The notes: a model not told the origin generated them from the letters alone. DNA of 64,000 nt from an uncultured Candidatus Saccharibacteria bacterium (GCA_964371255.1 CAYJKV010000004.1:39613-103612); one strand, 5' to 3'; counted from the first letter of the stretch, positions 4,414 through 60,253 are shown. Program-made: numbers and translations.

Positions 4414-4484
4414 TTTTCACAGGAGTATAGTATTGATAAATAATTATAACTTGATCATTAGTGGTGGTCCTTACGATTTTATAA

Positions 4485-4538
4485 ATGACCAATGACCAAT
4501 TTCCAATGACCAATCAAATCCTAATACCAAATGACCAA
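4485..4538. repeat. short tandem oligo repeat (atgaccaat / ccaaatgaccaa)
   Basis: atgaccaatgaccaatttccaatgaccaatcaaatcctaataccaaatgaccaa lies upstream of truB. It is related in style to the ccaaatgccaaa family. Confidence 0.6.
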
Positions 4539-4577
4539 GAGACACAAAGTTTAAAATCCTGAGCTAGCGAAATCCCT

Positions 4578-4599
4578 GCCTACCTACCGGCAGGTAGGC
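4578..4599. promoter_or_regulatory. 22-bp near-perfect palindrome (gcctacctaccggcaggtaggc) between divergent truB and gmd; candidate operator
   Basis: Inverted repeat cctacct/aggtagg around ccgg. It has no T-run, so it is not a terminator. Confidence 0.3.
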
Positions 4600-4757
4600 T
4601 AAACGAATTAGGTGTAGAGAAAAGCGGAAACAGAACAAAGATAACCTAAATTATTAAGTATCGTATGGGTTAGAGGTAAGGAGGTTTCTTTTGCAGTTTT
4701 TGTTATATTTTGTGCTAATCTGGATTAAGACTTGTTAATAAGCTAAATTTTTATTTT

Positions 4758-40453: not shown

Positions 40454-40681
40454 TTTTATTAGTCTTTACAATTTATAATGAATGTATTTTAGTATGGTTT
40501 TATCGCCTGATGGTGTTGAAATTAACACGGTTGAGCAGTTTTGTTCAGGCTTTTGCATCCTACTTGAAAAATGTATTTATGTCAAAAAGAGGGTTGATAA
40601 AATTATGACGGGCAGGTAAGTTGTAGAGACTTTAGGAAGAAATTCATAATTTGTTCTCTGCAAAAAGTGAGGAGGAGAAAC

Positions 40682-41020
40682 ATGAGGTTTAAACCCAGGA
40701 AGGTTGGAGAAAGAAGGGACGCGGCTAACTATACCATTGAGGTAGTTATGACGGATACGCTTGGTCGGGAACGCGGCAGTATCAAGGCTTGGCAGGCCAG
40801 AAGGTGGTTGGCACAGATGAACCGGATAAGTCCTAATCAAGCACAGGCTTTGTTAGACCAGGCGGATGAGGCTTATGAAATAGTGCAAGCCAACCGGCGC
40901 GTCTTTGGAAAGTCATGCCAAGGTGACGGGGAAGCAACAAGCGTGTTGACAGACTCATGTATCGACGATACCGTCATTGATGAGGAACCGCAGGAGAGGG
41001 AGAGAAAAGAAAGACGATAG
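40682..41020 (+). CDS. small hypothetical protein
   Basis: Strong SD ggagg 6 nt upstream of the ATG at 40682, and a rho-independent terminator immediately downstream. No family recognised. Confidence 0.45.
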   Translation: MRFKPRKVGERRDAANYTIEVVMTDTLGRERGSIKAWQARRWLAQMNRISPNQAQALLDQADEAYEIVQANRRVFGKSCQGDGEATSVLTDSCIDDTVIDEEPQERERKERR

Positions 41021-41035
41021 CAGAGAAACCTCAAG

Positions 41036-41058
41036 CCCTGAAAAATCAGGGTTTTTTA
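41036..41058 (+). terminator. rho-independent terminator (ccctga-aaaa-tcaggg followed by tttttt)
   Basis: Perfect 6-bp stem, 4-nt loop and T6 tract. It lies between convergent genes. Confidence 0.7.
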
Positions 41059-41143
41059 ATAATAATTAGTGGAAGGAAATCGGAAAATAAGGATGAAGCC
41101 GAGCGAAGGAAAGGAGCGGGGACGGGGAAGAACACGTCATCAG

Positions 41144-42226
41144 CTAGGAGGAGAATTTAAAAAACATAACATCGCCATCTTGGACGAGATAGGTTTTGCC
41201 TTCGTCGCGCACATGGCCGGCGCTGCGGGCAGCTGTGTGCGAACCGGTCTGAACAAGGTCGTCATAAGCGACAGTTTCTGCGCGAATAAATCCTTTCTCC
41301 ATGTCGGAATGGATTTGTCCGGCAGCCTCCGGGGCGAGGGCACCGCGTGGTACAGTCCAGGCTCTTGTTTCGGTGGGGCCAGAGGTGAAGAAAGTGATGA
41401 GGTGAAGAAGGGCATAGCCTGCTTGAACCAAGCGGTCCAGACCGGTATTGGTCAGACCATATTCCCGCAGGAAGATTATTCGTTCGTCATCGGGCAATTG
41501 CACCAGCTCCTGCTCAATCTTGACGGAGATGGGCAGGACGTGGTCGGTGTGGCTAAAGACGGCGGAGAACTCTTCGGGAGACAAAGATATTTGCTGGTCG
41601 CTAACGTTGGCGATGTATAGAACGGGCTTGCTGGTCAGGAGAGGAATAGTTTTATTGAGTTCAGTTTCTTCGGGAGTGAGAGGCAGGGTGCGAGCGGGCT
41701 GGTTGGCATTCAAATGTTCGGATATTTTAGCTAATAACACATCAAGTGCTTGGGCGGATTTATCGTTGCCCCTGATTTTTTTATCAAGGTTAGTGCGCAT
41801 TTTATCGACGACAGATAAATCGGCTAAGATAAGTTCAGTATTAATGATATCAACGTCGCGTTTGGGGTCGACAGTTTGTTCGACGTGGATGATAGTTGAG
41901 TTGTCAAAGAAACGAACGACATGAACGATGGCATCAACTTCCCGGATATTGGCCAGGAATTGATTACCTAATCCTTCGCCTTGGTGAGCGTTTTTAACCA
42001 AACCGGCAATGTCGACGAACTCTATGGTAGTGGGAGTAATTTTAGCTGACTTGGATAGCACTGATAATTTATTGAGACGTTCATCAGGTACGGCAACAAC
42101 ACCGACATTAGGAGTAATGGTGGTGAACGGGACGTTTTGCGCTTTGGCTGCCTGTTTGGTTAAAGCGTTAAAAAGAGTGGATTTACCCACGTTAGGCAGA
42201 CCAATGATCCCAAGAGAAAGTGGCAC
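41144..42226 (-). CDS. ychF: ribosome-binding ATPase YchF (Obg-like GTPase family)
   Basis: G1 GIIGLPNVGKSTLFNALT, a TGS/YchF C-terminal domain (…GALAPEAAGQIHSDMEKGFIRAETVAYDDL…), 360 aa. Confidence 0.9.
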   Translation of the reverse strand: MPLSLGIIGLPNVGKSTLFNALTKQAAKAQNVPFTTITPNVGVVAVPDERLNKLSVLSKSAKITPTTIEFVDIAGLVKNAHQGEGLGNQFLANIREVDAIVHVVRFFDNSTIIHVEQTVDPKRDVDIINTELILADLSVVDKMRTNLDKKIRGNDKSAQALDVLLAKISEHLNANQPARTLPLTPEETELNKTIPLLTSKPVLYIANVSDQQISLSPEEFSAVFSHTDHVLPISVKIEQELVQLPDDERIIFLREYGLTNTGLDRLVQAGYALLHLITFFTSGPTETRAWTVPRGALAPEAAGQIHSDMEKGFIRAETVAYDDLVQTGSHTAARSAGHVRDEGKTYLVQDGDVMFFKFSS

Positions 42227-42375
42227 AGGGGTTAATTTAGGCTATTAAGCGCGTATGTCATGGTTTTGACCTTACCATAATACAGTCTGTTTGGCAAGGT
42301 GACATAAAAGTGCTAAGATCGATTGTTAGTTTGTACTTTTCACCGAGACAAATAAACGTCTCACCGCATACAGGA

Positions 42376-43041
42376 GAATACCAAATGTCTACTACGGCCG
42401 TTTCCAATCGGGACAAGTTAGCTAAAGTTCTAGCCGGCTTGTCTGACATTCAGATTGACGCTGTTACACCATTGTTCGAAGACGTCGCCGAAGCGGCACG
42501 GACCGATAACTGTCTCAACCGTGTATCACGCGACAAGTTCAGGCGAGATCTTAACCTTAAACGCCTCCTCAACCCCACCATCACCGAGCTCGTCGGCATA
42601 GTTCTTGCTCCGAAGGACACACCTCTCGCCGACCGCATCAATGACGGCGATTACAAAGGCGGAGTCAACTCTGACATTACGGCCGAGTGTTTTCCAATCA
42701 CTCACGACGCCGGTCCTGTGCCCCTGGTACTCGCCGACTTTGGGTCCGAAGTAAGCAGTGAAGAGGTTGAACAATGGTGCCAGGCCGATGGTGGCTACGA
42801 AGTAGCCTATCCAGAAGATGGTTTGGCTGTCGGCGCTACTTCTCAGCACCAACACCTCCAGCTACAAAATCCCATTGTTGTGCTCGGAGGTCCTCCCGCG
42901 TTTCTGGGCGGTGCTCGTCGTGTGCTCTACTTCTTCGGGTGGGGTGACGGGCGTCGTCTGCACCTGCACTGCTACGGCAGCAGGTGGTACGGCTACTGTC
43001 GTTTTCTCCTCCGCAAGGTATCTAAGCCCTCGGGCTCTTGA
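42376..43041 (+). CDS. hypothetical protein (island-associated; possibly frameshifted at the 3-prime end)
   Basis: SD aggaga 7 nt before the ATG at 42376. The codon style differs from the backbone. An overlapping alternative frame is open at 42818..43171, so there may be a frameshift or pseudogene. Confidence 0.35.
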   Translation, partial: EYQMSTTAVSNRDKLAKVLAGLSDIQIDAVTPLFEDVAEAARTDNCLNRVSRDKFRRDLNLKRLLNPTITELVGIVLAPKDTPLADRINDGDYKGGVNSDITAECFPITHDAGPVPLVLADFGSEVSSEEVEQWCQADGGYEVAYPEDGLAVGATSQHQHLQLQNPIVVLGGPPAFLGGARRVLYFFGWGDGRRLHLHCYGSRWYGYCRFLLRKVSKPSGS

Positions 43042-43095
43042 TACCTCAGAACTTGGCTGCCACTTGGTCCCTTCCGTCGTTCGTCGTTCTTTCGT

Positions 43096-43136
43096 CCCTC
43101 AACGAAGACTAAACATCTTTCGCGAGGGATTTTTAT
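43096..43136 (+). terminator. candidate rho-independent terminator (ccctc...gaggg followed by ttttt, with a nested hairpin)
   Basis: ccctcaacgaagactaaacatctttcgcgagggattttta. It has a long loop, so confidence is lower. Confidence 0.35.
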
Positions 43137-43192
43137 TTATCCAGAATTGTATTAAGGTAAAAAATGGATAGTAGGTGTGTATTTTAAGCTAC

Positions 43193-43480
43193 GGGTTGCG
43201 CTTTAATAATTCTGCCCAAAGAATCACGCTGTAATATCACTCGCGCCTTTCTCGGTTTCGGAATTGGCAGTCTGAAGGTGGTTTCTAAAAGTCGAGTTGC
43301 GTAGTCATGATGCCGATTCTCAACATACGATCCCAACCTTTCGGTGGTTAACGGAATATGACCACATACGTCAACTTGTTTCTGTCCATATACAGTTATC
43401 TTATCAATCAGATCCCTTATAATGGCACGTTTGTTGCTAAAATCAAGTTTTTGAAGTAGGTATTGCGTTGTTAATTGTAG
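43193..43480 (-). pseudogene. C-terminal remnant of a large serine recombinase/integrase (no start codon)
   Basis: The minus-strand frame is open for about 95 codons without a Met: QKLDFSNKRAIIRDLIDKITVYGQKQVDVCGHIPLTTERLGS... This resembles the C-terminal (DUF4368-like) segment of large serine recombinases (…LIxKIxVYxDxIEI…). Stop codons lie on both sides. Confidence 0.35.
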
Positions 43481-43515
43481 TAGTATAATTAATAATATTC
43501 TTCAAAAAACATTCT

Positions 43516-44778
43516 ATGTATCTTCGTTCTACACTAACACTATTGTTTGTCAGTATAGTGGTTTTCGTATCACTACTACTCACAGCACCAGCTTTCGCCT
43601 ACTTGTTAATTGATAGTCACGGTACTGTTTCTAGATTGAGTACACAAGTGTTAGGTGATAGCGACTCTAGCGGTAGTGGGAGTGGCGGCGATGATCAGGG
43701 TGAGGGTGAGACTGGAGAAGACGACGAAGATAATAGCGGTGAGAGTGAAAAGACAGCCGAAGAAGAACAACAAGAGGCAGCCAAGAAAGAGGCCGAGCGA
43801 GTTCGCGAGACTACTAAAGAATCGGAGACTGAAAGCAGTACAGGCGTCAAAACAAAATTAAAGCGAGAAGATGATGGTCGAATGAAGACAGAGGTTAGGT
43901 TACAGGACGGTACGAGGATAAAAACAGAAACCCGTGCTGGCGGAGCGCGTACGGATGTATACAACGGCACGACTAAAATTCGTTTTGAGCGCGAAGGTGA
44001 CCGATTTCGCATCAAAGCGGAAAATGAATTGGGACAAGAAATTGAACTGGAAGAGCGTGAAGGTGATGATCTAGATACCGAAGAAGACAATGAAGCTGAA
44101 CTTAAAGGCACTTTAGTTAAAGTTGATAACGTCTTTCAACTGACTTCCAGCGGTGTAACGTACATTCTTCTACCTACTGAAGGTTTGGTTCTTGATAGCC
44201 TTGTTGGCCAATTTGTAGAAGTTGAGGGCATCCCAACTGCTGAATCACCTACGACGCTAACTATTACCAAGGCCAAACTTGAAAATACTGACGAGACTGA
44301 AGATGAAATTGTAGTTGAAGGGCGAGCTGATCTGTTAAAGATTCGTGCCCTCCAAAACAAAGCTATTATCGAGCGTCTTAATGTTCAGGCACTAACTGAT
44401 CTGCCGCTCTCGGTTGATCTGACCACTAATATATTGACTGTTACTACTCCTGCTGGTGAAAAACAGGTTACGGTTCTGCCTGATCAGGCCGTACAAAATA
44501 TGTTAGCGGCCAATGCCATTGATCGCTTAGGCGGGGAAGCACTTGTTGAAGAAGTGCGTCAAGGAAATATTCAAACCCTCGGCCAGGTGGTTGAACTAGG
44601 GCTGCGCAACAATGTGCCTGTTTACCAGGTTCAAGGTATTAAGAATCATCGCTTCTTAGGATTCTTTCCTGTGACGACTGACGTTACAGTAACGGTTTCG
44701 GCTGAGACTGGCGAGATTGTGGATACGAACCAGTCGCTCGGAGCTACTATACTTGATTTCTTCTCGATTTCGGCGTAA
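43516..44778 (+). CDS. secreted or membrane-anchored protein with a highly acidic Gly/Asp/Glu-rich region (hypothetical)
   Basis: N-terminal TM or signal (LTLLFVSIVVFVSLLLTAPAFAYLL), then GSGSGGDDQGEGETGEDDEDNSGESEKTAEEEQQEAAKKEAER..., 420 aa. Confidence 0.55.
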   Translation: MYLRSTLTLLFVSIVVFVSLLLTAPAFAYLLIDSHGTVSRLSTQVLGDSDSSGSGSGGDDQGEGETGEDDEDNSGESEKTAEEEQQEAAKKEAERVRETTKESETESSTGVKTKLKREDDGRMKTEVRLQDGTRIKTETRAGGARTDVYNGTTKIRFEREGDRFRIKAENELGQEIELEEREGDDLDTEEDNEAELKGTLVKVDNVFQLTSSGVTYILLPTEGLVLDSLVGQFVEVEGIPTAESPTTLTITKAKLENTDETEDEIVVEGRADLLKIRALQNKAIIERLNVQALTDLPLSVDLTTNILTVTTPAGEKQVTVLPDQAVQNMLAANAIDRLGGEALVEEVRQGNIQTLGQVVELGLRNNVPVYQVQGIKNHRFLGFFPVTTDVTVTVSAETGEIVDTNQSLGATILDFFSISA

Positions 44779-44874
44779 GCAGCTCTGCGTGCCCATACAT
44801 TTGGACCAAGAAAACTACAGTAGACTGCACGGCTTTACACATTTATTATTGGAGCCTTGGAGCGGACAATGCGG

Positions 44875-44990
44875 CCTAGCTTGTCCCGTTGGGCTATAAG
44901 CTGCTCTTTTCGGGGCTTAGGGCAATCGAATGCCAAGCGGAATTGCATCGGTTCAAAGGTTGGGGTGGTAACGCTCCGATCCCGACTCTC
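44875..44990. repeat. structured repeat element of about 115 nt, copy 1 (5-prime module agcttgtcccgttgggctataagc...cgggg; 3-prime module ggggtggtaacgctccgatcccgactctc)
   Basis: Shares conserved 5-prime and 3-prime modules with 49402..49537; the centre is variable. A partial 5-prime module is at 54264..54296. Confidence 0.65.
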
Positions 44991-45068
44991 AACATATAAC
45001 CGTATTTTACTTATTTAAACTAATCATGTAAAGTTTAATTATAGAATATCATAATTAAAGTTACAATA

Positions 45069-46205
45069 GTGGCAAAAAAACAACAGTTCCAAGCGGGGTA
45101 TTTTCGGCAGCAGGAGGGGTATAAGAGCTTCTTTCCGGCCAAGCTAGACTCCACTTATCGGTGGGCTGATTCTGATATTGATGGTTTATTGGAAGAAGCA
45201 ACTCGTTACTTGGGTGAACTTAACGCTTACTCGCGTCTTGTCCCCGATGTCGATTTTTTTATTGGCATGCATATTTTTAAAGAAGCGATCACGTCTAGTC
45301 GAATTGAAGGTACTAAAACGGCTCTTGACGAAGCGCTTTTACCTGAGGAAGAAGTTAATCCTGAGCGTCGGGACGATTGGACTGAAGTACGAAATTATAT
45401 AAGGGCAATGAATTACGCTATTAATCAATTAGATACGCTACCACTTTCGATGCGTTTAATGAGGGGGGCTCATGCTATCTTATTATCTGGAGTGCGGGGT
45501 GAACATAGAAACCCAGGAGAGGTGCGCAAGAGTCAGAATTGGATTGGAGGATCTAGCTTGAGGGACGCTATTTTTATTCCTCCGCCCGATACTCAAGTGC
45601 CAGAGCTCTTAGCTGGCTTGGAGCGTTTCTTGCATGACAAAAATAGTAAACTACCTAGACTGATAAAAATTGCTATTGGTCATTACCAGTTTGAAACAAT
45701 TCATCCTTTTCTGGATGGTAATGGCCGTATCGGCCGTTTGATGATTACCCTATATCTTGTATCAGAGGGCGTGCTTAGTAGGCCGACTCTCTACTTGTCT
45801 GACTTTTTCGAAAAGCATAAGGGCTCGTACTATGATGCCTTAACAATGGTACGGACTTCCCATAATCTTGATCAGTGGATTAAGTTTTTTTTGGCGGGAG
45901 TCGCTCAGACGGCACGCTCGGGGGCGGTGACATTCGAGGGTATTATCTCATTGCGTCAACGTGCAGAGCAAGGAATTATGACTTTGGGTAAGCGTTCAAA
46001 AACTGGCCAAGCTCTTTTGGAGAAGCTGTTTTCTCAACCAATCGTTAATACAAAACAGGTGGTTGATTTTCTTAATATTTCACCTCCTTCTGCAAATTCA
46101 TTGGTGGCGGCATTCGTTGATCTGGGAATATTACGGGAGGTGACAGGTTATAAACGCAATCGCTTGTTTGAGTTTACTGAATACGTAAAGCTGTTTGAAA
46201 AGTAG
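45069..46205 (+). CDS. Fic family protein (AMPylator/adenylyltransferase; class II with N-terminal inhibitory motif; C-terminal winged helix)
   Basis: Fic core [20 protein letters not shown] (HxFx(D/E)GNGRxxR). Inhibitory motif TSSRIEGT ([ST]xxxE[GN]) upstream of the core. 378 aa. GTG start. Confidence 0.9.
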
Positions 46206-46493
46206 TCTTCATAGACTGATCGAGCTGATCTGTATCAAGCTTTTCAAAAAAGCGCATCAATATCTGAATGCTGGCGGCCTTCCAGCTGTGCTGTTGTTGT
46301 ACGGAGTGAGCAGGTTGTGAGGAGGGGCGGGTAAATAACTTTAGCTGGACAGTCATTACAAAAGTAGCAGATACGTATATGAGCGAAGTCGGCTTTGAAC
46401 GGCAATTATTCCGATCGCTTGCTTGGTTTGTTTTAGCTTAATAAAGCAATATTAGGGACAAGCAGGAGCGTATACTACCTTAGTATTTGATTA

Positions 46494-46522
46494 TTGACAT
46501 GTATGTTGTCTAACGATAATAT
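46494..46522 (+). promoter_or_regulatory. consensus sigma70-type promoter (TTGACA, 17 nt spacer, TAATAT) upstream of the 46607 gene
   Basis: ttgacatgtatgttgtctaacgataatat: perfect -35 hexamer, 17-nt spacer and a 5/6 match at -10. Confidence 0.6.
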
Positions 46523-46606
46523 CGGTTAACTGTTCTCTAGGGTACGTGCTGGTATTGTAGACACGTTGTCTGCCCCTGCACCGCCCGTTAATCGAGGAGC
46601 CATAAT

Positions 46607-47269
46607 ATGGCTACAGCATTCGGACGAGCTAAGAAGGTTATGGAGCAATTGGAACGGCTAAGTGATCAGCAAGCTGACGATCTTATCGACGGCGGCTACA
46701 TCGCGGCCGTGCGAGAAGCCAAACAGTCAGGAACTTTGCCTGACGAAGAGGTGTTTCGTCAGTTTCTTGGCCTAGACAAACGTTTGCGAGGGATGGCAAC
46801 TGTTGATCTCTCCGCTCGGGCAGAGCCGTTCGCAGCAGCCGACTACTTCAAGAATCGCGCTGGTCTGTATATTTGGGATGGGTTCAAGAGCCGAGTGTCG
46901 TCAGTTGCTGGCACGGTAACAACCACACCGGCAACCAAATCTTCCAGCTTCGACCTTAAGAAAAGCAGCGCCGATCAACGGATCCGCGTCGAATTGCCGG
47001 AAGACCATGTATTCCCTGATGCCAGTGTTTTTTGCTCATATCTGGCCGGCATGATCGACCGTCAACCAAACGGTAAAGAAGGAGCTTTGCTGAATAACGG
47101 CCTCGCCAACATTTTCTATGTCAATGTTGATGACCGGGTCGTTGCCGTCTACGTCGGCTGGAATGCTGGTGACCAGTGGTGGGGCGTCGATGCCTGCGGG
47201 TTGGACGTCGATGTCTTCTCGGCGGGTAGCCGTGTTTTCTCTGCGACTGCTGTCGCTAAGGCACTTTGA
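46607..47269 (+). CDS. hypothetical protein (island-associated, downstream of Fic)
   Basis: 220 aa ORF with a strong upstream promoter and a downstream terminator. No recognisable family. GC-richer codon style. Confidence 0.55.
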   Translation: MATAFGRAKKVMEQLERLSDQQADDLIDGGYIAAVREAKQSGTLPDEEVFRQFLGLDKRLRGMATVDLSARAEPFAAADYFKNRAGLYIWDGFKSRVSSVAGTVTTTPATKSSSFDLKKSSADQRIRVELPEDHVFPDASVFCSYLAGMIDRQPNGKEGALLNNGLANIFYVNVDDRVVAVYVGWNAGDQWWGVDACGLDVDVFSAGSRVFSATAVAKAL

Positions 47270-47290
47270 TCTTTTGCTCTTAGACCCTTT

Positions 47291-47339
47291 GCCTCTTTGA
47301 TTCTTTGCGTCACCGCATCGAACCAAAGAGGCTTTTTTG
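47291..47339 (+). terminator. rho-independent terminator (gcctctttg...caaagaggc followed by tttttt)
   Basis: 9-bp perfect stem around a roughly 24-nt loop, followed by T6. Confidence 0.55.
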
Positions 47340-47780
47340 TTACACTGACTTCCGGAGCTCTTGATACTGCTTCGGTTACGGTTTGAGCAAGGAGTTTTGG
47401 ACGATCTGATCGCCAGAGTTCCGTCGGTCATGGCTTGGGCAAGCGTGATCCAGTATGAATTTACCTGACACCTTCACGACTTCTTCGCAGAGTAAATCAA
47501 GTTAGACTTTATTAAGCTTGGTTCTAATGGTAATCACTGCAGTAACCGCAAAACATAACCAAGCGTAATATACAGTGTTTTCAACGCTTGGCGGCACTAT
47601 GTTATTGTCGTCCAGGCTAATCATAGATACCGGCAAAGACAAGTCCGAGCGAGAACGGGAGAAGCCATTTTTTTGCTTGAGCAGGGATTTCGCCTACGTC
47701 GCAACATCAAGATATGATATTATTTTTTTAACATCTCGATACAAATAGTGACTCTTGAAATTTTTTTAAGCGACGGTGCA

Positions 47781-49403
47781 ATGAAACAGTGGTTTGGGGT
47801 CGTTCTTCTGTTGGTTGTATGTGTAGGGATGGGGCATCCCTTGTCAGCATACGCGGCGACTTTGCTTTCTAATATCAGTCAGAGCAATGATAAGGGCACG
47901 AGTATTTTTCGTAGTAACATTTGGGTGGCCTATCGTTTGACCGCTGGTTCACCTGCGACTATTGATAGCGTTACGTTGAATCTAGACCCTACCGCCGGAA
48001 ACTATACCGGCTTCTCTACATATACTTCAGGAGTAATCCGATTTTACAACGATAATTCTGGCGTAGTCGGCAGTGCAATTCCAGGCACTTTAGCGTATAC
48101 ATCAACTAATTCGGGAACCGGGCATACCGTCTATGCGAACGCCAGCGGCACTATTACAATTCCGAGCGCTGGAAATTACTGGATTGCGCTGACATGTTCA
48201 GCTTGTGCAAATATTGATTACCGTGAATCCAGTTCGGCAAGTTATTCGGGTGCTACCGACTGGCAGACAATTATTGGCAGCGCTTCCATATCCACGAGCA
48301 ATAATAAGGGCAGCAGTTGGGGAACACCATATTCTTCTTCTACCTATGGGGCCGTGATGATGACTATCGCCGGAACAGAAACTGATAACACGGCGCCAAC
48401 AGCTTCTACTCTTGCGCCAGCCGATGACGCGACTGGAGTGGCTCTGGATACCAATCTGGTGATTACTTTTGATGAGGCAGTTGACGCCGAATCTGGTAAC
48501 TTCACGATAAAGATGTCTGCTAATGATTCAACTGTTGAAACAATTGATGTGACGAGTGACAAAGTAACAGGCTCAGGTTCAACTGAAATTACTATTGACC
48601 CAGCGACAACGTTAACGGGCAGTACAGACTATTATGTGAACATCGATGCCACAGCATTTGATGATGCAGCTGGGAATAGCTATGCAGGCATGAACAGTGC
48701 AACAGCATGGAATTTTACAACGGTGGTTGTGCCGACACCAGCGCCGTCGACTTCTGAAAACACCGAGCAAAATACTGTTACCAACAAGACATTTGTGAAT
48801 GTGATCACAGAAGGTAACGATGAAGGAGGGCCGATTCCATTAAAACCAGTTATCACGTCAGATAATCAGGTAATACACAGCAAAGAAACCAATACAACAC
48901 AACAGCAAGAAGTAAAAGAGGGCTCGAACACGGCGATCACATCAAAGATCCCTGATGCTGATCAGGTGCAACAAGTGTATGTGAAAATTGCCGGAAAAAA
49001 GGTTCCTTTGAAAGTGAAAGATGACACATTCACATTTACGATAACATTAGGGTCTGATTTACCCCCGGGGCGGCATCCATATATATTGACGGCTGATTAT
49101 GGAATTTTTGCACTGCGACAACAAGGAGAGTTAATCGTGAATGCGCCGGAGCAGCCAACTCCTGCTGAATTGATTGCTCAGCAGGGGGATATTTTTAGCA
49201 AAGTATTTGATCGTAATGCTTCCAGTGAAGAAGGGCAGTATTGGACGAAGCGAATTTTAGCGGGAGAAAAGAAGACAGCACCGGAGCTCTATGGTGCAAT
49301 GCAATGGCAGCGTATTCACCGGGCGATTGCTGTTGTTCCTGCGGTGGCTGGTATGTTTACTAGCTCAGCAATGACGACTTGGCTATCACCAGTTACTGAC
49401 TAA
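47781..49403 (+). CDS. secreted Ser/Thr-rich protein with a bacterial Ig-like (Big_5/SbsA-type) domain; putative adhesin or surface protein
   Basis: Signal peptide MKQWFGVVLLLVVCVGMGHPLSAYA. The segment PADDATGVALDTNLVITFDEAVDAESGNFTI...IDPATTLTGSTDYYVNIDATAFDDAAGNSYAG matches the SbsA-type Ig-like domain pattern (P.D.atgV...i.i.F.e.v......f........DaAGN). Confidence 0.7.
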   Translation: MKQWFGVVLLLVVCVGMGHPLSAYAATLLSNISQSNDKGTSIFRSNIWVAYRLTAGSPATIDSVTLNLDPTAGNYTGFSTYTSGVIRFYNDNSGVVGSAIPGTLAYTSTNSGTGHTVYANASGTITIPSAGNYWIALTCSACANIDYRESSSASYSGATDWQTIIGSASISTSNNKGSSWGTPYSSSTYGAVMMTIAGTETDNTAPTASTLAPADDATGVALDTNLVITFDEAVDAESGNFTIKMSANDSTVETIDVTSDKVTGSGSTEITIDPATTLTGSTDYYVNIDATAFDDAAGNSYAGMNSATAWNFTTVVVPTPAPSTSENTEQNTVTNKTFVNVITEGNDEGGPIPLKPVITSDNQVIHSKETNTTQQQEVKEGSNTAITSKIPDADQVQQVYVKIAGKKVPLKVKDDTFTFTITLGSDLPPGRHPYILTADYGIFALRQQGELIVNAPEQPTPAELIAQQGDIFSKVFDRNASSEEGQYWTKRILAGEKKTAPELYGAMQWQRIHRAIAVVPAVAGMFTSSAMTTWLSPVTD

Positions 49404-49537
49404 GCTTGTCTCGTTTGGCTATAACCCGATATTTACGGGGCTTGGGAGGCCAAAACGTAAAAGCAAAAGGAAGTGATTCAAACCCTTCGACGCAGCTACA
49501 GGGTAAAGGTCGGGGTGGTAACGCTGTGATCCCAATC
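49402..49537. repeat. structured repeat element, copy 2; it begins at the adhesin stop codon
   Basis: taagcttgtctcgtttggctataaccc...cgggg...ggtcggggtggtaacgctgtgatcccaatc. The same modules as copy 1, in the same orientation. Confidence 0.65.
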
Positions 49538-49627
49538 TTTTATGACCTGTAAAATTAGTAGCTCATTTCTTTATTTTTTTTTCAGTGGTTGGGGTATTGA
49601 TGATTGACGACGGATCGCCCAGGAGAA

Positions 49628-51061
49628 CTAAAGAGTGGTCAAATGGATGGAATACTCGTCCGGTTTATTGGGCTTGATTTGGCTGGCGACAATCATGATG
49701 GGATCTCCTTGGTAAAGATGGTACTGGCGCAGTAAGAGTTGTTTGGTGCTGGCGGTAAGATTAATGGTTGAGTGTCTAGATAAAACAGGAGTAATTCCCC
49801 AACTTAAGAGCAGTTGCTGGTAAGTTGCGGTGGAAGCGGCGAGCGCCAGGATGGGCAAGTGAGGCCGCAAGCGAGAAAACGCGCGAGCAAAATAACCAGA
49901 TTGGGTGCTGACAATAATCGCTTTGGCATTCAGCATACGAGCGAGAGCGACGACGTTCTCGGCAATAGCCAACGGGGAGGTGGAAGGAAGTTTGGCCGGC
50001 AAGGGTTGGGTGAGCAAAGCGGAGGCTTCGGTCGAGATGATAATATCATTCATCATCCGGACAGCCCGAACGGGAAATTTGCCCATGGCGGTTTCTCCGG
50101 AAAGCATGACGGCATCGGTGTGATCGAAGACGGCGTTCGCCACATCGGAAACTTCGGCCCGCGTGGGACGCGGATTAAATTGCATCGTGCCAAGCATCTC
50201 AGTGGCGGTGATCACGGGCTTACCGGCATTCAGGCATTTATGAATAATGCCTTTTTGATGGAGGGGGACTTGAGCGATTGGTGTTTCCAGGCCTAAGTCG
50301 CCCCGGGCAATCATGACGGCGTCTGCTTCGGCGAGAATGGCATCGAAATGTTCCAAAGCTTCAGGCTTTTCGATTTTAACTATTACCTGCGGAGGCGGCA
50401 TATAGGCAGGCAGGTAGCGTTTAATTTTTTGTTTTAATTTAATAACATCGTTAGCGCTGCGGACAAAAGACAGAGCGACAAAATCAATGCCTTGTTGCAG
50501 ACCGAAACGCAGATCTGCTTCGTCCTTGGTAGTTAGCGGTTTTTCGACCAGTGAGAGGTGAGGAATATTAATCCCTTTGTGGGACAGCAGGGTACCGCCC
50601 AAAAGAACCCGGGCCTGGATGTGGCTGCCGCGACGGCGTATGACCTGCAACTCTTTAGTACCGTCATCGAGGAGAATTAAATCATTAATTTCCACCGCAG
50701 ATTTTAATTCGCGATAGGGAACGGGGATAGTGCCAGATGGGCTGGTAGTGGCACCGGCAACGAGGGTGACGATGGATCCTTCACGCAGTTCCAGGCCGGC
50801 TGCCGGCAACTCTCCGATTCTAATTTTCGGCCCCTGTAAGTCTAACAGCAGGGCGACGGGGAGGCTGGCTTGCCGGGAGGCGCGACGGACCTTTTGCAGC
50901 AAGGCTCGGTTACTGTCATGGGTGCCGTGGGAAAAATTGAAGCGAGCCACATTCATGCCGGCCTTGATCATGTCGCGCAGAATGTCTGACGATGAACTAG
51001 CGGGACCGATAGTACAGACAATCTTGGTGCGTTTATGCTGAGTGATTAATGATGCGGGCAT
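49628..51061 (-). CDS. pyk: pyruvate kinase
   Basis: KRTKIVCTIGPASSSSDILRDMIKAGMNVARFNFSHGTHD, ...MIARGDLGLE..., 477 aa. Confidence 0.9.
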   Translation of the reverse strand: MPASLITQHKRTKIVCTIGPASSSSDILRDMIKAGMNVARFNFSHGTHDSNRALLQKVRRASRQASLPVALLLDLQGPKIRIGELPAAGLELREGSIVTLVAGATTSPSGTIPVPYRELKSAVEINDLILLDDGTKELQVIRRRGSHIQARVLLGGTLLSHKGINIPHLSLVEKPLTTKDEADLRFGLQQGIDFVALSFVRSANDVIKLKQKIKRYLPAYMPPPQVIVKIEKPEALEHFDAILAEADAVMIARGDLGLETPIAQVPLHQKGIIHKCLNAGKPVITATEMLGTMQFNPRPTRAEVSDVANAVFDHTDAVMLSGETAMGKFPVRAVRMMNDIIISTEASALLTQPLPAKLPSTSPLAIAENVVALARMLNAKAIIVSTQSGYFARAFSRLRPHLPILALAASTATYQQLLLSWGITPVLSRHSTINLTASTKQLLLRQYHLYQGDPIMIVASQIKPNKPDEYSIHLTTL

Positions 51062-55040: not shown

Positions 55041-56930
55041 TTGTTTGTAACTAACACTATAATGAAATCACTATTTAGGTCGCAGTTAACATACAAAATC
55101 CTAAAATTTCTTAGCAGGAACCAGAAGTCGCACTATTTGGCGGAAATAGCCAGGAGCATTCAGTCCGATCCGGGTAACACCACAAAAGAATTAAAACGTT
55201 TAACTGAAGAGGGGTATTTGGTTCAGAGCGAAGAAAATGGCCGAAAATATTATGCATTAAGCGTTGACCTGCCGCATTTTAGTAAACTTGTCGGTTTATT
55301 AGAAAATGAGGCTGATCAAGAGTTCCAAAAATACTTTAGTATAGAGTGGATGCTGGGAGAGGACATTCCTAACATGACCCCATTTTTTAGCATGATCTGG
55401 CTAAATTGTTTTGTAGACGAGTTTGCCCAGCCAGGTGGCAAAGCTTATCGCAAGATTGCAGGAATCTACAAAGATTATCACTTATGGTTTTATTTCGAGA
55501 AAGAGAGTGCTAAGGAGGTCGCCAGCCACATTGTCAATCGTTTTGCGGCTGACCCTGACTTCATGACGCAAATCAACAAAGAGATTGTGGCTCATTCAGA
55601 TAAACTGCGTTCCTATTCCGAGACTATTCCGGAGACTGGATTGGAAAAGCTGTCGGCAAAGCAATTGTGGCAGATATTCAAACAGCATGAAGATATACAT
55701 ACAGCTTATTATCAGTGGGGATGGCTGCCGGTGGCGGCAGATATGTTTACTGATGAGTTGACGGAGAAAGGTAAAGTGGTTTTGCGCGAACACGGGGCTG
55801 GAGAAGATGAAGTGAATGAATATTTGGTGGTACTTACCCAACCGACCAAACCGTCGCTGATGAAACAAGAAGCTGATGAGCTTATTGATATCGCCTTGGA
55901 CGTGCAAAAGGACGAAAAACAAGCCGCTTTATTTTACGAGCTAATGCGGAAGTTCAAAGAGGACGAGGTTAAGGAGTTTGGGCTGTATACCCACAGCCCA
56001 CAATACGAAAAGGCTTTAGAAGAAAAGGTGCGGGAATTGATTAGTGAAATACCGCAAGATATATTGCAACGTTTACAAGAGCATCAGGCTAAGTATTTTT
56101 ACACTAGATTTCTTTTTACAGAGGAACAAGGCGTTTACAGTTTTGAGCATTATCTGAAGGGGTTGGTGCGTTTAGTTTGCCGAGGCGACGAGTTGCGACT
56201 AGAAAGAGAAAAGAGCAAATGGGAAATTAAAGTAGCTGAAAAAAAGAAAAAAGAGGTTAGTAGAACAATGCACCTTGAGTCCAAATGGATCACTTTCTTT
56301 GAAGAGTGGGGTGGCTTTATGGTGACGAAGATTTACCGCCGATATGCCCAGTTGTTTGCGCTGTCTAAAATGAGCGCTGTATTGGAAGAAATTGGCCGAC
56401 GACTAAGCTTACCGCAAAAGGAAGTTAGTTTTATGACCAGCGAAGAGATTGAAGCTGCTTTGCTTGGCAAGGCAATAGATAAAGATGTGATTAAGGCGCG
56501 GGTGCCGTTTTCTGTCTACTATGCTGATAAGGATACGCATAAGTTTTACATTGGCAGCGAAGCTAAACGTGCCGCAAAGCTTATTCAGAAAGAAGTGATT
56601 GAACAGGTTAATGAATTTACGGGGCAATGTGGCTGTCAGGGTTATGCTAAAGGCAAGGTTAAAATAGTTAATGTGGTGGCAGATATGAGTAAAGTAGTGC
56701 CGGGAGATATTTTGGTTTCCATATCAACACAGCCTGATCTATTACCGGCTATGAAAAAGGCAGCGGCATTTGTGACGGAACAAGGGGGGGTGACATCTCA
56801 TGCTGCGATTGTGGCGCGGGAGATGAATAAACCGTGTGTGATTGGCACAAAGATAGCAACCAAAGTTTTGAAAGATGGTATGGAAGTTGAAGTGGACGCA
56901 ACAAGGGGAAGGGTGACACTATTACAGTGA
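55041..56930 (+). CDS. winged-helix (ArsR/MarR-like) DNA-binding domain, a large middle domain and a C-terminal PEP-utilizer mobile (swivel phosphohistidine) domain
   Basis: N-terminus LTYKILKFLSRNQKSHYLAEIARSIQSDPGNTTKELKRLTEEGYLVQSEENGRKYYAL (wHTH). C-terminus ...GGVTSHAAIVAREMNKPCVIGT (PEP-utilizers His motif). 629 aa. It is the first gene of a five-gene coupled operon. Confidence 0.7.
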   Translation: MFVTNTIMKSLFRSQLTYKILKFLSRNQKSHYLAEIARSIQSDPGNTTKELKRLTEEGYLVQSEENGRKYYALSVDLPHFSKLVGLLENEADQEFQKYFSIEWMLGEDIPNMTPFFSMIWLNCFVDEFAQPGGKAYRKIAGIYKDYHLWFYFEKESAKEVASHIVNRFAADPDFMTQINKEIVAHSDKLRSYSETIPETGLEKLSAKQLWQIFKQHEDIHTAYYQWGWLPVAADMFTDELTEKGKVVLREHGAGEDEVNEYLVVLTQPTKPSLMKQEADELIDIALDVQKDEKQAALFYELMRKFKEDEVKEFGLYTHSPQYEKALEEKVRELISEIPQDILQRLQEHQAKYFYTRFLFTEEQGVYSFEHYLKGLVRLVCRGDELRLEREKSKWEIKVAEKKKKEVSRTMHLESKWITFFEEWGGFMVTKIYRRYAQLFALSKMSAVLEEIGRRLSLPQKEVSFMTSEEIEAALLGKAIDKDVIKARVPFSVYYADKDTHKFYIGSEAKRAAKLIQKEVIEQVNEFTGQCGCQGYAKGKVKIVNVVADMSKVVPGDILVSISTQPDLLPAMKKAAAFVTEQGGVTSHAAIVAREMNKPCVIGTKIATKVLKDGMEVEVDATRGRVTLLQ

Positions 56931-57877
56931 TGACCTACACCAAGACTTTCTCGGAAATATCAAAAAGCGATACGGCCATAGCCGGTGGCAAAGGGGCGTC
57001 ACTGGGCGAAATGACGCAAGCAGGCATTCAAGTGCCGCCTGGATTTGTGATTCTGGCACCCGCTTTTGATGAGTTTCTGAAAATTACTGACCTAAACGTG
57101 GAGCTGGATGCCATTTTGGACCAAGTGAACCATGAGGTAATGCACGAGGTGGATGACGCGTCAGAAAAGATTAAAGCCCTGATTTTGGGTAAAGAAATAC
57201 CGGCAAGTATGGCCAAGGAAATTATTTCTGCTTTCGATGAGTTAGACGCGGAATTCGTGGCTGTTCGTTCCAGTGCCACTTCTGAAGACTCCGCGGCGGC
57301 AGCGTGGGCGGGACAATTAGATACTTATCTCAATACGACCGAAGAAAATTTACTGGCCAATGTTAAAAAATGCTGGGCTTCGCTCTTTACGCCGCGGGCC
57401 ATTTTCTATCGTTTTGAAAAGGGATTACATGGGACACCAATTTCGGTCGCTGTCGTAGTCCAAAAAATGATCCAATCTGAAGTTTCAGGTATCGCTTTTT
57501 CGGTTCATCCTGTCACGCAAGATTACGACCAGCTAATTATTGAAGCTGGCTTCGGGTTGGGGGAGGCGATTGTCTCCGGCTCAGTTACACCAGACAGCTA
57601 TGTGATCGAAAAAAGCAGTTGGAAGTTACTCGATAAAAATATAACTACTCAAGAGCGGGGATTATTTCGTAAGGACGAAGGCGGCAATGATTGGCAAGAT
57701 ATTCCAACCACGAAAGGTGAGCAGCCGACGCTAACTGATGATGAAGTTATAGGCCTGGCAAAACTCATAGTTAAAATTGAGAGGCACTATGGTTTTCCCG
57801 TTGATGTTGAATGGGCACGAGAGAAGAATAGCTTTTATATCGTTCAAAGCCGTCCGATTACGACTCTGAATAAATAA
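56927..57877 (+). CDS. stand-alone PEP synthase/PPDK N-terminal ATP-grasp nucleotide-binding domain protein (PPDK_N)
   Basis: GGKGASLGEM...GIQVPPGFVI..., VAVRSSATSEDSAAAAWAGQLDTYLN and VVVQKMIQSEVSGIAFSVHP match the PEP synthase/rifampin phosphotransferase ATP-grasp domain. 316 aa, with no swivel or PEP-binding domain. ATGA overlap with the upstream gene. Confidence 0.8.
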   Translation: MMTYTKTFSEISKSDTAIAGGKGASLGEMTQAGIQVPPGFVILAPAFDEFLKITDLNVELDAILDQVNHEVMHEVDDASEKIKALILGKEIPASMAKEIISAFDELDAEFVAVRSSATSEDSAAAAWAGQLDTYLNTTEENLLANVKKCWASLFTPRAIFYRFEKGLHGTPISVAVVVQKMIQSEVSGIAFSVHPVTQDYDQLIIEAGFGLGEAIVSGSVTPDSYVIEKSSWKLLDKNITTQERGLFRKDEGGNDWQDIPTTKGEQPTLTDDEVIGLAKLIVKIERHYGFPVDVEWAREKNSFYIVQSRPITTLNK

Positions 57878-57890
57878 CGAAGAGAAAGTT

Positions 57891-59189
57891 ATGGCAGATA
57901 ACAAATGGCATTATCTTGGCAGATGGATTGAACCGGTATTGTCATGTGGTCTATGGTTGGAATGGAAAAACTTAACGGATGATATAGGACTTCATTTTAA
58001 AGGAGATATCGCCGTTTTGGATGGCTATCAGTATATTCTTAACGAAGATGTTAAAACAGCCAGTAAATTTTTGAATGACACAATCGTAAATAGCCCAGAA
58101 TGGTTTAATGTTTTTTTCAGACTTTGTGACGAGAAAATAGAGAAAGTATTATCGTTTAAGAATAAGAACGACCTGAGCGGCTTATTGATCGCTGCCACTA
58201 ATTCCTTGGGGCTAGTTACTATTCTGATAATGTTTGATATTGGGTATCAGAAATACATCAAAAAGATAGCGAAAAGACAAAACTTTGACGAAGAAGAATT
58301 TTTCTCTTTGGTCAAGCCGCATCGAAATACTTTGTTAATGGACTATATTCAGGAACTTAAGCAGCTGGATAAAAACAGTGAAGAGGCAAAAGAAAACTTT
58401 ATCAAGAAATATGGTTGGGTAGGAAAACATGTATTTCTGGGTGATGGTTTAACGCGTGAAAAGCTGGAACAGGAGCTGATTGATATTCCCAAACAAAAAA
58501 GTGCAAAAACCAAAGAAAGTATTAAGAAGTTGCCAAAAAAGTTGGCTGACCTATTGTCCCTTGGAAACAAGTTCGCTTTTTACCGCTCTTATATAGTTGA
58601 GTGCACCAATAGTGTCGTCTATGAGTACTGCCCAATTGTTAAAGAACTTGGCGAAAAGCGTGGCTTAATTTGGGATGATGTTTTACTTTTAGATTATCAG
58701 GAGGTTATTGACTTAAATGAGAAAAATGAAAAGCCTCACAATTTCGAGAAAAGGAGAAATGGCTACGGGAAAATAATAAAAGACGGCAAGAAAGTTATTG
58801 TCACGGGTGCCAGTTTAGAGAAGGAATTGAACAGGTTTCGGGAAAAAGTTGATAAAGATGTAAAAGAGATAAAAGGAATGGTTGCCTCTAAGGGGGGTAT
58901 CATTATAGGCATTGTGAGGGTTGTAGAGGAGTCGGCAATAATTTCCAAAATGAAGGAGGGTGATATCTTGGTGGCTAACGAGACTACTCCAGATTACGTT
59001 GTGGGCATGAAAATTGCTGGGGCTATTATAACCAATCAAGGAGGTATAACTTCTCACGCCGCAATTACCAGCAGGGAAATGGGTATTCCTTGTATAATCG
59101 GGACGAAAATCGCCACCCAAATTCTCAAAGACGGAGATTTGGTGGAAGTGGATGCAGAGAAGGGGATTGTGAGGAAGATTAATGGCTGA
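57891..59189 (+). CDS. PEP-utilizer mobile (swivel) domain protein with a unique N-terminal domain (paralog 2)
   Basis: C-terminus ...GDILVANETTPDYVVGMKIAGAIITNQGGITSHAAITSREMGIPCIIGTKIATQILKDGDLVEVDAEKGIVRKI. The roughly 320 aa N-terminal region is unrelated to known domains. Confidence 0.75.
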   Translation: MADNKWHYLGRWIEPVLSCGLWLEWKNLTDDIGLHFKGDIAVLDGYQYILNEDVKTASKFLNDTIVNSPEWFNVFFRLCDEKIEKVLSFKNKNDLSGLLIAATNSLGLVTILIMFDIGYQKYIKKIAKRQNFDEEEFFSLVKPHRNTLLMDYIQELKQLDKNSEEAKENFIKKYGWVGKHVFLGDGLTREKLEQELIDIPKQKSAKTKESIKKLPKKLADLLSLGNKFAFYRSYIVECTNSVVYEYCPIVKELGEKRGLIWDDVLLLDYQEVIDLNEKNEKPHNFEKRRNGYGKIIKDGKKVIVTGASLEKELNRFREKVDKDVKEIKGMVASKGGIIIGIVRVVEESAIISKMKEGDILVANETTPDYVVGMKIAGAIITNQGGITSHAAITSREMGIPCIIGTKIATQILKDGDLVEVDAEKGIVRKING

Positions 59190-59200
59190 CAAAGAAGGTT

Positions 59201-60253
59201 ATGGATATTAATAGTTTTGAGAGATCAGACTGGAATCAAATATGGGCAGGCGATTGGAGTTTGCTCTCCTGTTCGCAATTTGGCGAGCAGTACACGAAAA
59301 CTCTTATCGTCAATGGTAAAGTGTTTATGTCCCAAACTGTTCTTATGATTGAGGATGGTAAGAGCGCTGGCTTTATGACGCAGGCTGACAAAGACGCCTT
59401 TGGTAAGCATTTAGCCCAGGAGGTTGTTGATAATCCCAGCCGTGTCCAAGAAATTGCGGCTAATTTTAAACGACAGGTTGATTTGACGATGGAGTTGATG
59501 AATAAGTATAAAACCAGTGAAATCACCAAAGAAATTTACGAAGCTTTCTGGGAGCGCATACTGGAATACTACAAACCGCATGTGAATGTTAAGTATATTG
59601 TTGATTATCTTGATCCAGAACTGTTGAAAAAATATTTACCGGAGCTGGAAGAAGCACGGGTGTACGCTGAGCCTGTTTTCAAGCACTCGGAAGAATTTAT
59701 GCAGGCTATGGCGCAGCAACAAGGGGCTAAAATTGGTTATCCCACTGAACTAATATTGTGCTTGTTGATAGAAGAACTGCCATCGCTATGGAAGAGCGAA
59801 GCATTGCCAGCACAAGTAGTATTGCGACAGAGATATGATAGAAGTGCGTTGTTAGTTGATCTGTCTGATCAGTTGCTTTGCGTTGGTGATGAGGTGAGCG
59901 AGATTGATCAGTTTATCCATGGAGCGACGGAAGATGAAGTAATCAAAGGAGCAACAGCGTACCCAGGGCACGCGAAAGGAACCGTGCGAATTATCTTTGA
60001 TCCGACTAAAGCTGATCATTTTCAGAATGGCGACATTTTAGTAACTCACATGACGCGGCCGGAATACTTACTGATTATGAAAAAGGCTGCGGCTATCGTG
60101 ACTGAGGCTGGCGGCATATTGTCGCATGCGGCCATCACGTCACGCGAATTAAAAAAGCCGTGTGTGATAGGGACGAATAAGGCTACCAAGATATTGAAAG
60201 ATGGAGACCTGGTTGAGGTAGATGCGGATAAAGGGATTGTGAGGAAAATATGA
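59201..60253 (+). CDS. PEP-utilizer mobile (swivel) domain protein with a unique N-terminal domain (paralog 3)
   Basis: C-terminus ...GDILVTHMTRPEYLLIMKKAAAIVTEAGGILSHAAITSRELKKPCVIGTNKATKILKDGDLVEVDADKGIVRKI. Confidence 0.75.
   Translation: MDINSFERSDWNQIWAGDWSLLSCSQFGEQYTKTLIVNGKVFMSQTVLMIEDGKSAGFMTQADKDAFGKHLAQEVVDNPSRVQEIAANFKRQVDLTMELMNKYKTSEITKEIYEAFWERILEYYKPHVNVKYIVDYLDPELLKKYLPELEEARVYAEPVFKHSEEFMQAMAQQQGAKIGYPTELILCLLIEELPSLWKSEALPAQVVLRQRYDRSALLVDLSDQLLCVGDEVSEIDQFIHGATEDEVIKGATAYPGHAKGTVRIIFDPTKADHFQNGDILVTHMTRPEYLLIMKKAAAIVTEAGGILSHAAITSRELKKPCVIGTNKATKILKDGDLVEVDADKGIVRKI

Follow-up and report, generated by a model that had tools for sequence, protein, structure and literature searches.

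We analyzed a stretch of 64,000 nt from an uncultured Candidatus Saccharibacteria bacterium (GCA_964371255.1, CAYJKV010000004.1:39613-103612), referred to below as the window, in which an island at 42227-49627 separates the genes ychF and pyk. Coordinates are positions in the window, and L and P numbers denote related loci and proteins, respectively. The island, a block of ∼7.3 kb, carries five genes, each on the plus strand, and the flanking ychF and pyk are both on the minus strand. We hold with good confidence that the island is a fossil tandem array of a single integrative-element family, whose large serine recombinase (LSR) belongs to an uncharacterised clade and would insert the element into the first codons of ychF. 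On sequence evidence the window itself holds an immobile fossil, whose architecture is explained by related genomes. An earlier note on this DNA had read the interval from ychF to pyk as a degraded integrative element, and this is borne out by a genuine LSR remnant, by junctions of att type, and by a nucleotide skew that appears unadjusted to the strand bias of the host.

Recombinase remnants and copies of the ychF start

Three LSR remnants were found in the island (remnants 1–3; 43184-43480, 44835-44995, and 49396-49539), all on the ychF strand and oriented toward ychF, and every one of them holds a copy of the first ychF codons in a different reading frame. The ychF gene itself (41144-42226, minus strand; Pfam MMR_HSR1 and YchF-GTPase_C) begins with the codons GTG CCA CTT TCT CTT GGG ATC (42206-42226), ending in a conserved core, GGGATC (42206-42211). 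The host half-site (B'), with the codons of the P-loop IIGLPNVGKS, follows downstream of this core. A core of the form GG(G/C)ATC accompanies the ychF start and each of its copies in the window (42206-42226, 43309-43326, 44978-44995, and 49528-49539).

Remnant 1 (43184-43480, minus strand) is an attP-like junction (P-O-P') with homology to the LSR C-terminus. It comprises 98 open codons (43187-43480) that lack a start codon and run up to a stop at 43184-43186, and it divides into three parts: the 51 last codons of the LSR body (43327-43480), a mimic of the ychF start, ATGTTGAGAATCGGCATC (MLRIGI in another frame, 43309-43326), and the conserved LSR tail, which ends in FRLPIPKPRKARVILQRDSLGRIIKAQPVA (43187-43308). 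The start-less C-terminal LSR fragment that the earlier note had placed on the minus strand at 43193-43480 is thus real, with its open frame and LSR homology, but it is not the only one, as three remnants are present. The homology search that the note had suggested for this fragment was run with phmmer, exhaustively over 1.84 billion representatives, and returned 41 matches. The best match, P0018 (529 aa), is 86% identical over its residues 472-527 and carries three LSR domains (Resolvase, Recombinase, and Zn_ribbon_recom in Pfam), and other matches (P0020, P0021, P0023, P0042, and more) run on through the tail F.F..LP.PRK.RII..RD..GRI. A word-index protein search with the 98-aa query gave no candidates. 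Most of the database "proteins" matching remnant 1 (P0021-P0058) are open reading frames (ORFs) of 40–150 aa, and these short ORFs look like gene predictions on detached LSR tails, that is, att-site scars annotated as hypothetical.

Remnant 2 (44835-44995, minus strand), recognized by translation and by tblastn to LSR tails, is a tail-only junction. It starts with a copy of the ychF start, ATGTTGAGAGTCGGGATC (MLRVGI, 44978-44995), and continues with the tail YVESRDRSVTTPTFEPMQFRLAFDCPKPRKEQLIAQRDKLGRIVRSKAPIINV (44838-44977) up to a stop at 44835-44837. Upstream of it, a promoter scan found three promoter-like sites on the minus strand (45004-45075). Remnant 3 (49396-49539, minus strand) is the outermost junction and of attL type (B-O-P'). 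Here a decayed original ychF 5' end, ...AAGATTGGGATC (KIGI, 49528-49539), lies next to pyk (49628-51061, minus strand), which forms the outer flank of the island, and is followed by a frameshifted tail, DHSVTTPTF.../...FAFTFWPPKPRKYRVIAKRDKLSQ with a terminal stop (49396-49527), clipped by the overlapping 3' end of a gene with a Big_5 domain. Between the pyk stop and this junction, 49540-49627 (minus strand) is presumed from its position and the junction model to be the ancestral ychF upstream region (the host "B" arm); it has no similarity to the upstream region of locus L001.

Remnants 2 and 3 share a block of 110–135 nt, forming a direct repeat (44877-44985 and 49403-49535) in which the 29 nt at 49505-49533 are 90% identical to 44955-44983. 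The minus-strand translation of the repeat is LSR tail, intact in one copy (...FRLAFDCPKPRKEQLIAQRDKLGRIV...) and frameshifted and truncated in the other. An RNA gene fragment (RNase P-like GGTAACGC) was considered for this repeat and rejected, given the lack of an Rfam match and the translation as LSR tail. A tRNA scan and an Rfam scan of the window both gave zero matches. The window has no intact catalytic domain and no complete LSR ORF, so the remnants are gene fragments and not enzymes; full-length LSRs used as tblastn queries found nothing in the window beyond the remnants.

The ychF start as probable insertion site and a proposed history of the island

In four related loci (L091, L003, L046, and L056), a full-length LSR gene immediately precedes ychF in the same orientation. 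These LSR genes overlap the ychF start by 35–55 nt, and the final LSR residues are ychF P-loop codons read out of frame. As far as ...ATGTTGAGA(G/A)TCGGCATC (GGCATC), the recombinase/ychF junction of L091 agrees with remnant 1 over 40 nt with a single mismatch, and there the two diverge: L091 goes on as GTCGGACTGCCCAACGTCGG (ychF), and remnant 1 goes on as LSR tail. The 18-mer common to both reads MLR(V/I)GI in a second frame and is the predicted substitute ychF start. The same junction split as in L091 is seen at L134, where an older LSR remnant with its tail is followed by an element of ∼6 kb with an intact LSR abutting ychF. At L015 (1177-1330), as in remnants 2 and 3, a tail starts exactly at a copy of the ychF start, and at L092 a second LSR remnant is present at 7007-7156, with ychF at 8008.

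One locus, L130, holds a complete element of 12,182 bp. At one end are the copy ATGAAACTATCAATCGG and a tail (position 85), and at the other the LSR, ATGAAACTATCTATCGG, and ychF (position 12267). Joining the two ends in silico produced an uninterrupted, in-frame LSR of 588 aa with the conserved tail, and joining the outer arms produced a reconstructed attB, MKLSIGIVGLPNVGKS. No far-end junction was found within the 10-kb flanks of L003, L046, and L091; we attribute a match at L091 5950 to chance. Intact relatives carry primase, small resolvase, DUF5659, AAA_25 protein, or restriction-modification genes.

The comparison of these junctions shows a predicted attB that spans the ychF start and P-loop DNA (M-x-L-K-V/I-G-I | V-G-L-P-N-V-G-K-S), with the putative crossover at or just past the GGN glycine codon. 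It likewise places the predicted attP within the 3'-terminal part of the LSR gene that the element carries, where the DNA of the LSR frame (...LG[SY]..E.R...) also encodes, in another frame, a substitute ychF start (MLR[VI]GI or similar). Insertion would leave the LSR gene directly upstream of ychF and minus its conserved tail of ∼40 residues, its new end being ychF P-loop codons read out of frame. The ychF gene would thereafter start from the element-borne mimic. Its original start, displaced and joined to the severed LSR tail, would mark the far end of the element.

All relatives that we fetched have other genes upstream of ychF, and none has pyk adjacent. L001, L092, and L109 look empty yet carry traces of an element-derived start: TGGGATATG (...W-D-M) stands just before the ychF start, with no adjacent LSR (L001 2470-2510, L092 8008-8050, and L109 3088-3160). 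This sequence matches the LSR-coding arm (…MGYE…) of intact elements, which suggests that the ychF 5' ends of these three loci may also be element-derived. The ychF 5' end in the window is unlike that of the closest relative, L001.

We surveyed metagenomes with a degenerate, back-translated DNA pattern for PKPR....I..RD..GRI and recovered 106 tails at 102 loci, against a chance expectation of ∼1–2 (our own rough estimate). Nearly all 106 are detached from an LSR body, with stops 25–40 codons upstream closing the tail frame. A ychF-like start (M.L.[VI]G) in another frame was present 47–89 nt upstream in 47 of the 81 unique tails, compared with 0/74 and 1/85 in controls. For the 11 unique tails with a ychF start detected in the same locus, that start was downstream on the same strand in every case (11/11), 1.0–8.9 kb off. 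Tandem tails also occur in L015, L092, L131, L134, L153, L171, and L176. Many mini-islands have no LSR (e.g., L096, L109, and L189), suggesting that loss of the recombinase after insertion is common. The exact DNA pattern of the remnant 2/3 arm had 0 matches in the metagenomes, and the viral contigs of IMG/VR contained no P0018 relative, no tail motif, and no free attP form.

Such strong protein-level conservation of the tail motif in 106 detached copies, together with the promoter-like sites ahead of remnant 2 and the many short database "proteins" made of this tail, could also mean that the tail and the ychF-start copy form a functional small gene or regulatory module (for instance, a peptide expressed from a duplicated ychF promoter) that selection maintains next to ychF-linked islands. 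We regard this as very improbable. Conservation among the matches is partly built in, as the scan required an intact motif; the tail frame has no start codon and is closed by the upstream stops; the ychF-start copy is in the other frame and soon hits stops; remnant 3 is frameshifted and truncated; and the tail of L130 completes the LSR ORF exactly.

If the island is a tandem array, its order from pyk would begin with the host arm and decayed ychF start (49540-49627 and 49528-49539), followed by tail 3 and unit A, which is bounded by remnant 3, contains the Big_5, orf220, and SoFic-type genes, and would be the first insertion. Next would come a mimic and tail 2 (remnant 2) with unit B, the gene of a secreted acidic protein, and then the 51 LSR-body codons, mimic, and tail 1 (remnant 1) with unit C, orf243, and finally ychF. 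The three remnants argue for at least two, and probably three, successive insertions. Because the element arm copies the ychF start, the ychF-side junction would still be attB-like and could be hit again; with repeated hits, newer elements would stack beside ychF and older ones would shift outward. An internal junction in such an array would consist of the older element's LSR and the newer element's tail, as remnant 1 and L134 appear to do. Unit C is the innermost and probably the youngest, and the degree of decay is consistent with unit A as the oldest: the tail of remnant 3 is frameshifted and cut short by the Big_5 stop, remnant 2 is without its LSR body, and 51 codons of that body survive in remnant 1. 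Both the insertion order and the re-use of the ychF-side junction are what we infer from this arrangement. All three LSR genes would later have been deleted, wholly or partly, and with their loss the island would no longer be self-mobile and its cargo would be fixed.

Several observations weigh against this history. No LSR body lies beside ychF in the window, and the window ychF start matches neither the native start of relatives nor the MLR[VI]GI mimic, so that the innermost junction is deduced and was not observed. Upstream of remnant 2, the arm is rich in AT and shows no recognizable LSR origin past the 18-nt mimic, and remnant 2 could be a host-type junction that was imported with flanking DNA. 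No serine integrase is known to use attR as a target, and the evidence for re-insertion at the ychF-side junction is confined to the similarity of the arms (17/18 and 18/20 nt). The third-position skew described below does not change monotonically from unit C to unit A, with orf220 in the "oldest" unit still reversed, and a ranking of unit ages by skew alone was rejected for this lack of monotonicity. Finally, the orf220 homologue of L015 lies outside the outer junction detected there.

A single insertion might also have sufficed, if duplication or rearrangement within the element, or homologous exchange between related elements, later gave rise to the three remnants. The block shared by remnants 2 and 3, including its 29 nt at 90% identity, would agree with such events, one homologous crossover between a circular element and a resident remnant would also leave flanking direct repeats, and no LSR body survives to date the events. 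We nevertheless consider a single insertion improbable, since the tail of remnant 1 is of a different subfamily and the DNA past its crossover is unrelated to remnants 2 and 3, and since the beginning or switch point of every remnant coincides exactly with the ychF-start core, a position explained by site-specific recombination and not by random duplication. Tandem tails are, moreover, common at other loci, with L134 presenting an old remnant and then an intact element.

Beyond successive insertion, we put forward a further and rather doubtful idea, that tail exchange is a state switch of the LSR and that ychF is a self-renewing dock gathering defence and hypervariable-ligand genes across the candidate phyla radiation. 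The full-length, tailed enzyme would then be confined to the excised circle or to tandem arrays. An integrated copy would make a tail-less LSR, with frame-shifted ychF codons at its end, that differs from the full-length enzyme in activity, stability, or directionality.

Strand skew and cargo

An excess of G over C on the plus strand is extreme along all 64 kb, with a backbone GC skew of 0.261 ± 0.065 (1-kb windows, n = 219). The mean skew of the island is 0.080, its windows are 1.8–4.7 SD under the backbone mean, and no backbone window falls under the island mean. Third-position GC skew, oriented to the plus strand, is +0.26 to +0.59 in 35 of the 40 backbone genes, on either coding strand, and +0.12 to +0.30 in the remaining five; the five island genes have −0.35, +0.05, +0.33, −0.18, and +0.16. 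What sets the island apart is a replication-strand skew that is absent or reversed, a difference that is strong in no more than two of its five genes. The island is barely separated by GC content or by strand-symmetrised tetranucleotides (z ≤ 2.3, a value equalled by several backbone windows), and the symmetrised tetranucleotide distance was rejected as an island marker because its signal is weak and not island-specific. The compositional check proposed in the earlier note was thus answered by skew and not clearly by tetranucleotides. The note had also described a codon style rich in C-ending codons. Such usage is real, but it reflects the missing strand skew and not a foreign codon dialect, and third-position C reaches 36%–38% also in minus-strand backbone genes such as ychF and pyk.

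The closeness of GC content and tetranucleotides to the backbone fits donors among related organisms, and the data support the view that the skew of the island has not yet adjusted to the strand bias of its host. In relatives the skew is strong downstream of ychF and about zero upstream, the upstream regions of L001, L015, and L091 being without backbone skew. On the ychF strand, close relatives (L001, L002, L015, and L091) have a GC skew of −0.2 to −0.44 downstream of ychF. The strand asymmetry of the backbone keeps one polarity over 64 kb and is far beyond typical bacterial values; such extreme skew makes it a very sensitive island detector in this lineage.

That the block is native, and its odd skew the product of a local inversion or of relaxed selection on fast-evolving surface genes, is the reading to which we give the least credence. 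It would agree with the near-backbone GC content and symmetrised tetranucleotides and with the two genes whose skew is simply reversed, as an inversion would give. An inversion would, however, flip all genes and would not yield values from −0.35 to +0.33, and recombinase remnants and att-type junctions stand at the bounds of the block. Homologues of the island proteins were not detected upstream of ychF in L001-L005 and L023, the sole exception among readable relatives being the orf220 homologue in L015, and homologous cargo is found elsewhere in unrelated contexts.

The cargo of unit A includes a Fic protein gene (45069-46205, plus strand). The earlier note had called its product a class II Fic protein, and the Fic_N + Fic + HTH architecture (Pfam), which has an inhibitory helix at its N-terminus and a winged HTH at its C-terminus, agrees, as do the Fic motif HxFx(D/E)GNGRxxR at residue 212 and the inhibitory motif SSRIEG at residue 76. 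The protein matches the PADLOC SoFic profile at E 7e-116 (positions 5-359 of 361) and SoFic chains in the PDB at E ∼1e-35 over their full length. By these matches it is a predicted AMP-transferase of the SoFic type, an anti-phage abortive-infection family; the anti-phage function is known only from characterised SoFic proteins (PMC12249575; preprint 10.1101/2022.05.11.491447). Fic homologues lie beside tails in L098, L136, L143, L144, and L160. A 41-codon ORF with a TTG start (46195-46320, plus strand) overlaps the SoFic-type gene at its stop codon. One characterised SoFic is described as having a small antitoxin, AS1, downstream of it (PMC12249575), and by analogy the 41-codon ORF is a candidate counterpart.

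The second gene of unit A, orf220, lies in a transcription unit at 46494-47338 (plus strand), with a coding sequence of 220 codons at 46607-47269. The promoter and terminator that had been noted for it were both found, as a promoter-like TTGACA-17-TAATAT at 46494-46522 and a hairpin with a T-run at 47291-47338 (z −5.9). Its product can no longer be called unknown, as the earlier note had it: by sequence and predicted structure, it is a member of a variable-protein family that diversity-generating retroelements (DGRs) target, with a putative C-type-lectin fold. A homologue, P0005, has a 114-nt variable/template repeat pair in L085 (2282-2395 and 2724-2837) and L086 (2003-2116), with 18 of 20 mismatches at template adenines. 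No template repeat for orf220 was found in the 64-kb window, L015, or L082, and tblastn with the reverse transcriptase and Avd of L092 as queries found neither in the window. The window gene is thus a member of the target family with no complete DGR here. The orf220-family gene adjoins a Y1_Tnp transposase in L085-L088. L092, a ychF-linked island, has an RVT_1 reverse transcriptase and bAvd, the DGR core, at 3676-5105, beside a frameshifted LSR with a full tail. The third gene of unit A (47748-49403, plus strand) encodes a secreted Ser/Thr-rich protein with an Ig-like Big_5 domain, in agreement with the earlier note on both composition and domain (Pfam E 2.5e-19); its true start is likely the Met at 47781. 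The Big_5 DNA is also found in L081, with a 540-aa gene call.

Unit B carries a single gene (43516-44778, plus strand) for a 420-aa protein that is, as noted earlier, acidic and secreted, with 18.5% D+E overall (33% in residues 46-125) and a hydrophobic, signal-like N-terminus. Its C-terminus is weakly PepSY-like (E 6.7e-4, which fails Pfam's cutoff).

Unit C carries orf243 (42385-43041, plus strand; 218 aa from the ATG at 42385, with the ORF opening at 42310), which has no match in Pfam, PADLOC, or PHROGs and only four homologues. An alignment of these four shows a hypervariable stretch of 40 residues at the C-terminus, set between invariant flanks (PIV.LG ... CRFLLRK, where CRFLLRK is the end), and the third-position GC skew of the gene (−0.35) is reversed, as in orf220. 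It may represent a second hypermutation-target family. A search for variable/template repeats in orf243 and its homologues was negative, and its AF2 model (pLDDT 49) is unusable. Paralogy of orf220 and orf243 was considered and rejected, as they have no similarity. The host-interaction effectors that had been proposed as cargo of the island are better described as conflict or variable-ligand genes, of the SoFic type and the DGR-target family.

Outside the island, an array of four paralogues, each with a C-terminal PEP-utilizers mobile domain, and a separate PPDK_N protein occupy 55041-61353. The genes at 56927-59189 have a reduced third-position GC skew (0.12–0.15) and low GC and are the top tetranucleotide outlier of the window; a comparable run of paralogues lies upstream of ychF in L189. 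The gap between rpsF and ychF (40454-41143, ∼690 nt) has no convincing gene, its sole ORF being one of 117 aa (40667-41020, plus strand) with no Pfam match; at the corresponding position in L091, a 136-aa gene runs on the opposite strand.

Significance and comparison with known systems

In the candidate phyla radiation, where genomes are tiny and few routes of gene gain are recognized, LSR-mediated insertion at the ychF start would be a widespread and hitherto undetailed means of forming small cargo islands. The P-loop codons at the ychF start are among the most conserved DNA stretches in bacteria. If an LSR family does dock at these codons while repairing ychF, it would explain the small islands found there, which carry defence genes (SoFic and restriction-modification), DGRs and their targets, and surface proteins, and would also explain their frequent persistence as recombinase-less fossils. 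The tail motif with its ychF-start copy offers a simple marker to delimit such islands in metagenome bins, by which dozens of short "hypothetical proteins" in databases would be att-site scars. Builders of integration tools could also take an interest in this LSR, whose predicted target is highly conserved and nearly universal in bacteria and for which a pair of putative attP and attB sites has been mapped. In the literature that we searched, we did not find the first-codon crossover, the start mimic embedded in an LSR gene, the detached tail, the stacking, or the spread in Patescibacteria. The LSR clade has at most 29% identity to any plasmid-borne LSR, and its PDB matches cover just part of the N-terminal catalytic domain.

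Two of the cargo genes resemble described systems. The window Fic matches the SoFic system (PADLOC PDLC03963; PMC12249575) end to end along its profile, and a defence role may be predicted here. The orf220 family shares an adenine-specific repeat pattern and a lectin-like predicted fold with DGR-targeted C-type-lectin variable proteins (e.g., TvpA, PDB 2y3c); unlike complete DGRs, the window orf220 is without a template repeat, reverse transcriptase, or Avd.

The ychF gene has been named, from gene context, as an integration site of LSR-encoding pipolins in Actinomycetota (bioRxiv 10.1101/2024.05.22.595293). As far as the accessible text of that preprint describes them, LSR pipolins share with the present elements an LSR with Resolvase, Recombinase, and Zn ribbon domains, the position next to ychF, and defence-type cargo, and the small resolvase and primase of L130 are much as described there. 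They differ in that no piPolB was seen here and that the hosts here are Patescibacteria (candidate phyla radiation) and not Actinomycetota; the accessible text has no first-codon crossover, ychF-start mimic in the LSR gene, detached tail, or tandem stacking. In Streptococcus pneumoniae, prophage PPH005 is integrated between a DUF951 gene and ychF, with int immediately upstream of ychF (PMC8637289). That case differs in its intergenic attB, Firmicute host, and full prophage, and the accessible part of the report describes no start-codon replacement and names no integrase type.

Integration in archaeal viruses of the SSV1 type, which use a tyrosine integrase, partitions the integrase gene in two. 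Mycobacteriophage BPs, also with a tyrosine integrase, has its attP inside the repressor gene, giving integration-dependent immunity (PMC4557955). As in SSV1 and BPs, the putative attP here is within an element coding sequence, so that integration would alter the C-terminus of the product. The present case, known from sequence alone, differs in that only a conserved tail of ∼40 residues beyond the known LSR domains would be exchanged. The proposed state switch may be likened to the integration-dependent immunity of BPs, but it would act on the recombinase itself.

Islands that target tRNA genes carry a displaced part of the target gene, which stays functional, and can accrete in tandem at the restored site. 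Unlike in these islands, the target here is the 5' end of a protein gene and not the 3' end of a tRNA gene, the recombinase is a serine and not a tyrosine recombinase, and the segment that is restored lies inside the recombinase gene in a different reading frame. The likeness lies in the direct repeat of a partial gene at the far end of the element and in stacking by re-use of the restored site, as we propose for the island between ychF and pyk.

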